A model generated the notes under the pieces. The model was not told where the DNA came from, did no database searches, and worked only from the letters and a program-made list of their open reading frames with translations. From Blastocatellia bacterium (GTDB lineage Bacteria; Acidobacteriota; Blastocatellia; UBA7656), in assembly GCA_963765495.1 (NCBI GenBank), contig CAVXWP010000004.1:96001-160000 (forward strand): 64,000 bases of DNA, read 5' to 3'. How positions within the stretch are numbered: the first letter of the stretch is position 1; every line of letters begins with the position of its first letter. Positions 41,058 through 42,168 of the stretch are shown here, in pieces. A program made the translations under genes and the position numbers.

Positions 41058-41657
41058 TTAACGTCTCCCCAACCGCTCGCGGTGAGCGTTTATGCGGCGA
41101 TCAATCGCCGTGACTACTTGATCCGTAAGGCGGTTGATGTCAACCGCGCTCAACCCCGTATGCGAAACGGGCGATTGCGTCTTTGCGGTTCGGGCGGCAG
41201 GATCGGCTCCCGATGACGCGTCTTCACGAACCGAAGCAGGCAAAGCGGAACGCACCACCACCTTTTCGAGATCGCGTATCGGAATCGCATCCGCTTGAGC
41301 CGGGGCTTGAGGCTGAGACCGAACAAACGCCTCGCTTGTTTCAATTCTCGTCGTCCGTTTTAACACCCGCTCAACGATGGCTTCCTCCCTGAAGACACGC
41401 TCAAGCGCAGGCGCGAGTGCTTGTATCGCGCCGGGATCGGTAGCAAAACGAGGAGCGCCCGTCGCCTGACGATTGACAACCGGGCTGAGTCGCAATGCGA
41501 TATGAATATCGGTCTGCGACCTGTTGCGCGTGACAAGCGTCAATCCACGCGTGCGTAGAAACACAAGTGGCTCGAAGCAGGAATGGTGCCGGGTTATGCC
41601 TTGCGCGGCGCGGGTTATTCTAATGTCTCGAAAAACTGTCTTCAGTCTGTCTGTCAT
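41058..41657 (-). CDS. CIS hypothetical protein in the tape-measure position (Afp6-like C-terminal helix)
   Basis: Low-complexity middle; C-terminal DINRLTDQVVTAIDRRINAHRERLG helix typical of CIS loci; ATGA overlap with the upstream ORF. Confidence 0.6.
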   Translation of the reverse strand: MTDRLKTVFRDIRITRAAQGITRHHSCFEPLVFLRTRGLTLVTRNRSQTDIHIALRLSPVVNRQATGAPRFATDPGAIQALAPALERVFREEAIVERVLKRTTRIETSEAFVRSQPQAPAQADAIPIRDLEKVVVRSALPASVREDASSGADPAARTAKTQSPVSHTGLSAVDINRLTDQVVTAIDRRINAHRERLGRR

Positions 41658-41818
41658 GACTCGTTCATCCGGTTATTGATACTTGAGATTTCTCTCACCC
41701 AGCGGCGGCGGTCTTCGTGTTCGAGCCCCATTACCTGATCGTGCGGCCAGTGAAAGTGATACGTGACAAAGGCTACCTCCTCATAAAGCTGGTCGAGGGG
41801 GTAGCCTAGGATTCCCCC
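41654..41818 (-). CDS. DUF6760-like / P2 gpE'-like segment, probably the -1 frameshift extension of the chaperone
   Basis: YPLDQLYEEVAFVTYHFHWPHDQVMGLEHEDRRRWVREIS lies in the -1 frame relative to 41806-42168. There is no ATG/GTG/TTG between the shift site and the conserved core. Confidence 0.7.
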   Translation of the reverse strand, partial: GGILGYPLDQLYEEVAFVTYHFHWPHDQVMGLEHEDRRRWVREISSINNRMNES

Positions 41819-41833
41819 ACAGTAACCGCCTCC
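41770..41833 (-). promoter_or_regulatory. Candidate -1 programmed ribosomal frameshift signal
   Basis: GGAGG (41829-41833), a 10-nt spacer, GGGGGAA (41812-41818), and hairpin AGGCTACC-C-CCTC...GAGG-A-GGTAGCCT (41770-41807). Confidence 0.72.
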
Positions 41834-42168
41834 GGCTCGAAAGAGTGCTGACATTGAGGACACGTTACAGACTCGCGACCGCCTACTCTGTTGATCTCGT
41901 TGTAGAGGTCTTGCAGGTATTGGAAGTCGGCGGCAAACAACCCTTCGATAGTCTTTGGCGTTATCGGCTGCACTCCGCCGAGCCTTGTCACCACGCGCGC
42001 CAGTATGATGATGGAAAGGTAAGCGGGATTTTTTTGCACTCGCGGGTCTTTTGCCGGCAAGATTTCATCGGCGGCAGTCGCAAGCCTCATCACTCCTTCG
42101 CGGTGAAGATTCCCGTCTTCGTCGAGATACCCCATAGGCAGTGCGAACTCGTGTTCGGTTATAAACAT
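41806..42168 (-). CDS. Tail assembly chaperone (gpG/gpE-like)
   Basis: Directly after the tube gene; LP.GYLD..G.LHREGVMRLATAADEI...FAADFQYLQDLY..IN; C-terminal CPQC. Confidence 0.75.
   Translation of the reverse strand: MFITEHEFALPMGYLDEDGNLHREGVMRLATAADEILPAKDPRVQKNPAYLSIIILARVVTRLGGVQPITPKTIEGLFAADFQYLQDLYNEINRVGGRESVTCPQCQHSFEPEAVTVGES

Follow-up and report, generated by a model that had tools for sequence, protein, structure and literature searches.

The conserved frameshift in genes that encode tail assembly chaperones in long-tailed phages was reportedly described by Levin in 1993 and by Xu, Hendrix and Duda in 2004 and 2013-14. In phage lambda, two proteins with a common N-terminus, G and GT, are made in a constant proportion by a -1 slip in a gene located between the tube and the tape-measure genes; G binds the tape measure and T binds the tube protein, roles that we assume for the system described here. 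In phage P2, the record lists the genes in the order FI (sheath), FII (tube), E, E+E' (by a -1 frameshift), T, U and D; in this operon (FETUD) the shift takes place close to the 3' end of the chaperone gene, at T TTT TTG. E belongs to the Pfam family Phage_TAC_7, E' to Phage_P2_GpE, and the next gene encodes the tape measure. Here we describe the locus of an extracellular contractile injection system (eCIS) in a Blastocatellia bacterium (assembly GCA_963765495.1, contig CAVXWP010000004.1, positions 96,001 to 160,000 of the forward strand; this whole stretch of 64,000 nucleotides is called the window, and positions are counted from its first letter), in which the tail assembly chaperone gene is, with a probability that we put at about 88%, recoded by a programmed -1 ribosomal frameshift into a frame encoding a DUF6760 domain. 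This reading is supported by the anatomy and the conservation of the junction (the -1 phase of DUF6760, an in-phase slippery heptamer and, in just over half of the sequences, the absence of start codons), by a covarying hairpin, by the homology of the extension to P2 E' and by natural fusions of both parts in a single open reading frame (ORF).

The eCIS locus shares with P2 the order of sheath, tube and chaperone/extension, a -1 shift that is predicted towards the 3' terminus of the chaperone gene, and a homologous extension with the common pattern D.L...VA..FHWP...W; moreover, some Firmicutes eCIS loci use T TTT TTA. It differs from P2 in that its chaperone shows no detectable similarity to gpE and has a CPxCxH knuckle, that its usual heptamer is G GGG GAR combined with a strong hairpin, and that the host element is an eCIS and not a phage. 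At the position of the P2 tape-measure gene, the window has a 199-aa (amino acid) ORF without a family. With lambda it has in common the position of the gene after that of the tube protein and two proteins, predicted in the case of the eCIS, that share an N-terminus by a -1 slip, whereas the lambda tail is non-contractile.

With regard to the signals, the -1 frameshift in Escherichia coli dnaX is based on an internal Shine-Dalgarno (SD) sequence, the heptamer A AAA AAG and a 3' stem-loop. The eCIS junction likewise combines an SD-like motif 10-11 nt upstream, a heptamer and a stem-loop a few nucleotides downstream, but the heptamer differs, the product is extended rather than truncated and the role of the SD-like motif is confounded with a Glu codon. 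The heptamer GGGGGAA itself, which had been named as a phage slip site when the locus was first inspected, is, according to a study of actinobacteriophages, the "fivetwo" motif of about 1000 chaperone frameshifts (PMC10885494). Heptamer and kind of gene are thus identical to those reported there; the reported cases belong to siphophage and myophage genomes, whereas the eCIS heptamer spans many phyla as well as archaea and is accompanied by a conserved hairpin.

Anatomy of the junction between chaperone and DUF6760

All genes of the eCIS locus are located on the minus strand according to the ORF list and Pfam, and this applies to all features of the window given below. The chaperone gene (41806-42168; PHROG 508 "tail assembly chaperone", E 9.7e-10) encodes the E-like 0-frame short form of 120 aa and directly follows the gene of a gp19-type tail tube protein (42171-42608, 145 aa; Pfam Phage_T4_gp19, E 8.9e-53). 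A reading of the letters alone, referred to here as the original prediction, had proposed that this gene ends in GTG GGG GAA TCC TAG, that a conserved ORF follows in the -1 frame and that both are joined by frameshifting. Indeed, we located GTG at 41820-18, GGG at 41817-15, GAA at 41814-12 and TAG at 41808-06; the slippery heptamer G GGG GAA (41812-41818) lies in the phase of the 0 frame, and the 0-frame stop codon TAG (41806-41808) follows 3 nt after it. No stop codon interrupts the -1 frame between the heptamer and a TGA at 41656-41654, and this frame contains Pfam DUF6760. The E'-like part of the predicted long form, consisting of 52 codons and the TGA, spans 41654-41812 (DUF6760 in the translation, E 4e-19), with the domain proper at 41660-41794 (PF20546, E 8.3e-19, profile positions 8-52 of 89; 67.9 bits compared to a gathering cut-off of 27). 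From the heptamer onwards this frame reads GGG GGA ATC CTA GGC TAC CCC..., i.e. G G I L G Y P L D Q L Y E E V A F V T Y H F H W, and the predicted lengths of 120 and 171 aa (119 + 52 codons) equal those given by the original prediction. The TGA overlaps the ATG of the 199-aa ORF (ATGA), and an ATGA or GTGA overlap of the -1 frame stop with the next start was found in 31 of the 78 sequences analysed below, which suggests that the -1 frame is translated to its end.

Two further elements were found where they had been predicted. An internal SD-like GGAGG, a possible stimulator, is located at 41829-41833, separated from G GGG GAA by a 10-nt spacer. A putative stimulatory hairpin, assigned by folding and covariation, spans 41770-41807 (AGGCUACC.CCUC(G) / (U)GAGG.GGUAGCCU); it starts 4 nt 3' of the heptamer and comprises about 13 bp, in which a C/A mismatch separates a run of 8 bp from one of 4 bp with a closing G-U pair. 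Its predicted folding energy is -20 kcal/mol (z -3.6), and only 1 of 200 shuffled sequences folds as well. The further claim that no start codon precedes the core of DUF6760 was correct only for the stretch between heptamer and core; upstream of the heptamer, the -1 frame contains a GTG (41863-41861) and an ATG (41856-41854), which are the sole candidate independent starts in the ORF list and translation, and no SD motif precedes either of them in the sequence.

Phase and start codons in related loci

We analysed two sets of related loci. Set 1 was obtained by a chaperone-alignment search, which returned at least 600 pattern matches, 584 of them confirmed; the best 80, from many bacterial phyla and including 14 archaeal loci, were analysed. 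Counts out of 78 sequences refer to the 77 loci in -1 phase plus the window; L008, L037 and L076 are left out of them and reported apart. Set 2 consists of 22 loci chosen by a DUF6760 profile match and not by the chaperone. It was drawn from DUF6760-positive genomes (4 of 301 in the phylum of the window, 45 of 149 in the order of L076) and leaves out L084, from an unpublished genome, as well as L086 and L087, which are the same places as L008 and L076. The phase of DUF6760 relative to the chaperone was constant as predicted, being -1 in 77 of the 80 loci of set 1 and in all 22 of set 2. A homologue of the tube protein is encoded upstream of the chaperone in these loci as well (76 matches over 77 related loci).

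A conserved ribosome-binding site and start codon for DUF6760 was not found. In the open -1 stretch, which extends from the preceding -1 stop to the domain, ATG, GTG and TTG are all missing in 40/78 and 15/22 sequences, i.e. in 55 of the 100 -1-phase sequences; in 27/78 a start codon is present only upstream of the heptamer, and 11 of the 14 archaeal loci lack any. Start codons at the positions found in the window (-48/-57) are present in only part of the related loci. The existing annotation is inconsistent. A DUF6760 profile search of 1.84 billion representatives resulted in 684 matches at E up to 0.001, the best 150 of which are mostly 47-104 aa long and have inconsistent N-termini. Among finished plasmids, 46 records match, and 24 of the 25 listed do so in two pieces; RefSeq annotates two coding sequences (CDSs) on these plasmids, a "phage tail assembly protein" and a "DUF6760 family protein", and the start of the latter is placed inside the domain (Rhodococcus pWB1, 47 aa), at the GTG of a GTGA overlap or at a CTG (L113, L116). 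The domain is under clear conservation at the protein level.

These data bear on the alternative that DUF6760 is a separate small protein, translated from its own start (GTG 41863 or ATG 41854) or by reinitiation at ATGA or GTGA, with -1 merely being the usual overlap phase. The two annotated CDSs in RefSeq agree with it, as do the two candidate codons in the -1 frame of the window, 48-57 nt before the domain; some start codon exists in 38/78 sequences and lies within 12 nt of the domain in 11 of them, and haloarchaeal and several Streptomyces loci have ATGA or GTGA stop-start overlaps that could drive reinitiation. However, a separate protein is hard to reconcile with the many sequences devoid of any start codon and with candidates in the window that lack an SD motif, and it leaves the in-phase slippery heptamer, the covarying hairpin and the single-ORF fusions described below unexplained. 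We therefore regard it as improbable for the family as a whole, while a few lineages may combine an independent start with frameshifting; the overlapping ATGA or GTGA start of haloarchaea and some Streptomyces could also be used.

Conservation of the slippery heptamer

In agreement with the original prediction, the heptamer is either kept in phase or swapped for another slippery heptamer in 78/78 and 22/22 sequences; thus none of the 100 -1-phase sequences (99 loci and the window) lacks such a site. By our own arithmetic an in-phase heptamer of the form X XXY YYZ is expected by chance at about 1 in 256 codon positions, and from this we conclude that the pattern is far beyond chance. In set 1 (n = 78) we found GGGGGAA 41 times, GGGGGGG 20 times, GGGGGGA 12 times, GGGGGAG twice, and GGGGAAA, GGGAAAA and CCCTTTC once each. 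Set 2 is made up differently (GGGGGAG 9, AAATTTT 6, TTTTTTA 3, GGGGGAA 3, GGGGGGG 2), with A AAT TTT (6) and T TTT TTA (3) being used by low-GC loci; these two heptamers, like G GGA AAA and C CCT TTC, belong to AT-rich or divergent lineages. On two plasmids from haloarchaea, an in-phase G GGA AAT/C precedes the stop by 15 nt, in addition to an ATGA overlap. The peptide encoded over the slip site varies (GG, GK, RG), and slipperiness is retained. Counted from the codons of a conserved Gly-Tyr pair, the heptamer is located 11 nt upstream in 73 of the 78 sequences (14 nt in 4 others, 17 nt in the last one) and the 0-frame stop 2 or 5 nt upstream in 66/78; the overlap in set 2 is mostly 19-49 nt long.

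The same sites allow us to judge whether the ribosome slips at all, since RNA polymerase might instead add one G in the G run and the inserted G would lead to the same protein. The 41 + 20 + 12 + 2 of 78 sites that are runs of 5-7 G would be compatible with such transcriptional slippage. Known polymerase slippage, however, needs long A or T runs, and the runs in A AAT TTT, G GGA AAA, C CCT TTC and G GGA AAY comprise only 3-4 bases at the same phase and place; these short-run sites fit tandem tRNA slippage, and an RNA hairpin 4-8 nt downstream is a ribosomal signal. Slippage during transcription thus appears very improbable.

The downstream hairpin and the SD-like motif

When 60 nt of each of the 78 sequences were folded, the same hairpin appeared in nearly all of them, and the anticipated covariation of the stem was observed: 6 of the 13 pairs show changes on both sides (22 cells), and none of 500 shuffles reached the covariation score. 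In the alignment, 91.9% of the stem cells are paired, compared to 33-60% with slid partners. Some of the compensatory changes alter the protein, such as CUC/GAG to CUG/CAG (Glu to Gln) and UAC/GUA to UAU/AUA (Val to Ile). Synonymous sites within the stem are nearly fixed (n = 78): Tyr is encoded by TAC in 72 and by TAT in 6 sequences, whereas for Tyr outside the stem the numbers are 32 and 37; Val is encoded by GTA in 67 sequences, Gly by GGC in 70, and Ala by GCC in 67 compared to 31 for Ala outside the stem. In Streptomycetaceae a hairpin of different sequence is found at the same place (ACGUACGCG/CGCGUACGU), formed by the codons ACG UAC GCG ... GCG UAC. The stem is missing from the predicted folds of six loci whose sole in-overlap heptamer is A AAT TTT or T TTT TTA.

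An SD-like 4-mer is located 6-17 nt upstream of the heptamer in 58/78 sequences, whereas the share among the remaining 12-nt windows of these genes is 11%; the low-GC loci of archaea frequently have GTA GAG at this place. Since the motif overlaps the codon of the invariant Glu113, its role as a stimulator is ambiguous.

Natural fusions of both parts

Proteins in which chaperone and DUF6760 are encoded by a single ORF do exist. Among the DUF6760 profile matches these are P0198 and P0210; P0198 has three sister clusters of 150-151 aa (four clusters in all) and one split relative of 107 aa. In addition, P0122 is a 177-aa in-frame chaperone-DUF6760 fusion, which is a singleton. Its AlphaFold2 (AF2) model (mean pLDDT 78.8) comprises a folded chaperone part, a disordered linker (residues 110-118) and three helices with pLDDT above 94, and the linker coincides with the slip region. 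Searched with Foldseek against PDB and BFVD, the model had no match at E up to 0.001; a 55-aa Myoviridae protein aligned over 48 columns (TMt 0.84, prob 0.99) with an E of 1.1, which is too weak to use.

Two further candidates for one-piece fusions were discarded: P0123 is a frame-scrambled translation, and Kovacikia minuta plasmid pA (L109:1480-2040) has a normal G GGG GAA TAG junction plus an extra upstream indel. The latter record is unannotated, and its additional break in the chaperone reading frame probably reflects an error in the assembly.

Finally, the notion that the split is an artefact or a sign of decay, i.e. that it reflects homopolymer errors in one fused gene or an unexpressed dead remnant, is hardly credible despite the six G instead of seven in L008, the extra indel in the Kovacikia record and the in-frame singleton P0122, because the same -1 phase is present in finished genomes and plasmids from isolates of Rhodococcus, Streptomyces, Kitasatospora, Halogeometricum and Haloferax as well as in isolates among the 80 loci, the 0-frame stop lies within a few nucleotides and DUF6760 is conserved at the protein level.

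Family membership of the chaperone and its extension

The extension had been suspected to resemble that of P2, and this likeness was substantiated: in hhalign, a 76-sequence DUF6760 alignment matched P2 E' with 93.7% probability and an E of 1.9e-7 over 41 columns. The comparison with the family Phage_P2_GpE itself gave a mixed result, as the hhalign match is to the single P2 E' sequence and hmmscan, with E values as high as 10 admitted, returned PF06528 (Phage_P2_GpE) neither for the window extension nor for P0122. Taken together, this points to DUF6760 being a family related to Phage_P2_GpE and not a member by the threshold of Pfam.

The chaperone has at least 7995 relatives of 66-210 aa, and some sources call close relatives "phage tail assembly protein" or "FluMu gp41". 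The window chaperone itself has no match in Pfam; its relative P0122 has a sub-threshold match to Phage_TAC_7 (PF10109, the family of P2 gpE and Mu gp41; E 0.028, 14.9 bits compared to a cut-off of 25). The chaperone part did not match P2 gpE significantly in hhalign, and tblastn with P0122 found no match in 50,697 phage records. Because the extension is homologous to E' but neither a phage record matching P0122 nor a match to gpE was found, we take the pair to be an old eCIS lineage of the E/E+E' pair and not a recent import from a phage.

An invariant C-P-x-C-x-H-x-F-x-x-E knuckle is located at chaperone residues 103-113, just before the slip site. It gives weak zinc-ribbon matches and is missing in the clade with the one-ORF fusion. 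In haloarchaeal loci (L108:1330-1482, L118:130-282) an extra 50-aa ORF lies between tube and chaperone; the haloarchaeal chaperone has an acidic tail of about 60 residues, and haloarchaeal DUF6760 is 89 aa long, i.e. the full length of the Pfam profile.

Proposed mechanism

We propose that most ribosomes would read GGG GAA TCC TAG and release the 120-aa chaperone, while a fraction would slip back by one base on G GGG GAA, aided by the 13-bp hairpin 4 nt downstream, which may pause the ribosome, and perhaps also by the upstream GGAGG at a distance of 10 nt. On this heptamer, tandem or P-site slippage would lead to ...V-G-(E/G)-I-L-G-Y-P, so that the predicted junction peptide of the long form is ...AVTVGEILGYPLDQLYEEVAFVTYHFHWPHDQ... 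(or G for E). Ribosomes that have slipped would read DUF6760 in the -1 frame and produce a protein of 171 aa, consisting of the chaperone, a flexible linker and a helical E'-like domain. By analogy to lambda, the efficiency of the slip would fix the ratio of the two forms; the shared chaperone part would coat a tape-measure-like, i.e. length-determining, protein, and the E'-like extension would recruit tube subunits. On the sequence evidence, the pair is the predicted eCIS counterpart of P2 gpE/gpE+E' and lambda G/GT.

Observations weighing against frameshifting

Several observations do not fit this proposal readily and have to be set against it. Besides the start codons and stop-start overlaps discussed above, the heptamer G GGG GAA departs from the canonical X XXY YYZ pattern, as the A-site tRNA re-pairs with a middle-position mismatch or a G:U pair. 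Hairpin and SD-like motif lie within the codons of conserved residues (GYPL, EEVA, Glu113), and their conservation is partly due to the protein. The loci are mutually related and were sampled by similarity, and the counts are therefore not independent events. The missing match of the chaperone part to gpE and that of the extension and P0122 to PF06528 also count on this side.

Moreover, 3 of the 80 loci of set 1 depart from the pattern. L008 is in +1 phase and has six G where others have seven; a homopolymer error is likely but unproven, the naming of the assembly suggesting long reads. In L037, DUF6760 is truncated, and AT-rich non-coding DNA comes after it. In L076 (2780-3010, the same place as L087), from a member of the Clostridiaceae, chaperone and DUF6760 are in one frame, split by a single TAG. 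The hairpin is retained with compensatory changes (GGCUGC/GCAGCC) and contains this TAG in its loop, and there is no slippery heptamer; read-through of the stop codon could replace frameshifting here, or it could be a pseudogene or an error. The 20 other loci analysed from the order of L076 are all in -1 phase.

Genomic context of the locus

The window contains a set of eCIS parts by Pfam, namely sheath, tube, spike, gp25, baseplate J, an Afp15-like AAA+ ATPase, a Pvc16-like cap and an eCIS_core protein, and no capsid genes were seen beside the eCIS genes, although the whole window was not searched for capsid or terminase; judged by this gene content, the locus is an eCIS. Upstream of the tube gene, Pfam assigns an AAA+ ATPase with a winged-helix domain (49895-52138), an eCIS_core/HNH protein (46170-49829), a DUF4265 protein (45684-46166), a Pvc16_N protein (44667-45614) and the sheath (42627-44606). 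The eCIS_core/HNH protein (1219 aa, within 45684-49829) has an N-terminal eCIS_core domain of the DUF4157 type, a long low-complexity middle part and a C-terminal HNH nuclease, and the DUF4265 protein comes after it; the two look like a putative cargo toxin with an immunity or adaptor partner.

The 199-aa ORF (41058-41657), at the place of the P2 tape-measure gene, has no family in Pfam, NCBIfam or PHROGs and could be detected in just 6 of the 77 related loci, for the most part via its last approximately 30 residues (...DRLTD.V..AIDRR..AHRER.GR motif). For a length ruler at the tape-measure position it is short. It is followed, by Pfam and in this order, by a CIS_tube/LysM protein, a 395-aa protein, a Phage_base_V spike, gp25 and two Baseplate_J proteins. 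Archaeal loci have a second tube-like gene after chaperone/DUF6760 in place of the 199-aa ORF.

The distribution of DUF6760 in the profile search is very patchy (4/301 genomes in the phylum of the window versus 45/149 in the order of L076, some with two copies), which fits a horizontal spread of eCIS. The Afp/PVC type of eCIS, represented by one Afp locus (Serratia entomophila pADAP), is the same kind of machine and has a small ORF, Afp6, between afp5 (tube) and afp7, but no chaperone gene at the place of afp6. Since this locus is devoid of the pair, the chaperone/DUF6760 cassette is not universal in eCIS. Afp6 (L123:5042-5209; 55 aa, overlapping afp5 and afp7 by 4 nt each) belongs to DUF5908 and was rejected as a relative of DUF6760 (hhalign 4.8%).

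Implications

The principle is textbook knowledge for phage tails, and our proposal is its extension to eCIS and not a new mechanism. No description of such a frameshift for eCIS was found in the open full-text literature, although subscription papers and supplements may hold one; the word "frameshift" has no occurrence in PMC4122934, PMC10020575 and PMC10066040.

Tentatively, and with less confidence than we would need to prefer it, we envisage one portable cassette, combining G GGG GAR with a 13-bp hairpin formed by the codons of GYPL and EEVA, that would work on bacterial and archaeal ribosomes and move horizontally with eCIS, with DUF6760 as a universal tube-recruiting arm of a chaperone so far uncounted among eCIS core parts. 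Lineages would retune it by heptamer swaps, L076 may use TAG read-through, and selection would keep the ratio of short to long form and not the mechanism.

If frameshifting is true, hundreds of eCIS loci would be misannotated, given at least 584 species genomes with the chaperone and 684 DUF6760 cluster representatives; the "DUF6760 family protein" with its arbitrary, internal or CTG starts would have to be annotated as the frameshift extension of the chaperone, and DUF6760 would gain a function and a homologue, P2 E'. The chaperone pair would join the parts list of non-Afp eCIS lineages including the Streptomyces type, which was reported to be without a typical tape measure (PMC10066040); Streptomyces accounts for 24 of the 46 matching plasmid records. 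Expressing or re-engineering such an eCIS in a different host would require that the slip also functions in that host, and the 14 archaeal loci with a conserved -1 signal would be a natural test bed for frameshifting in archaea.

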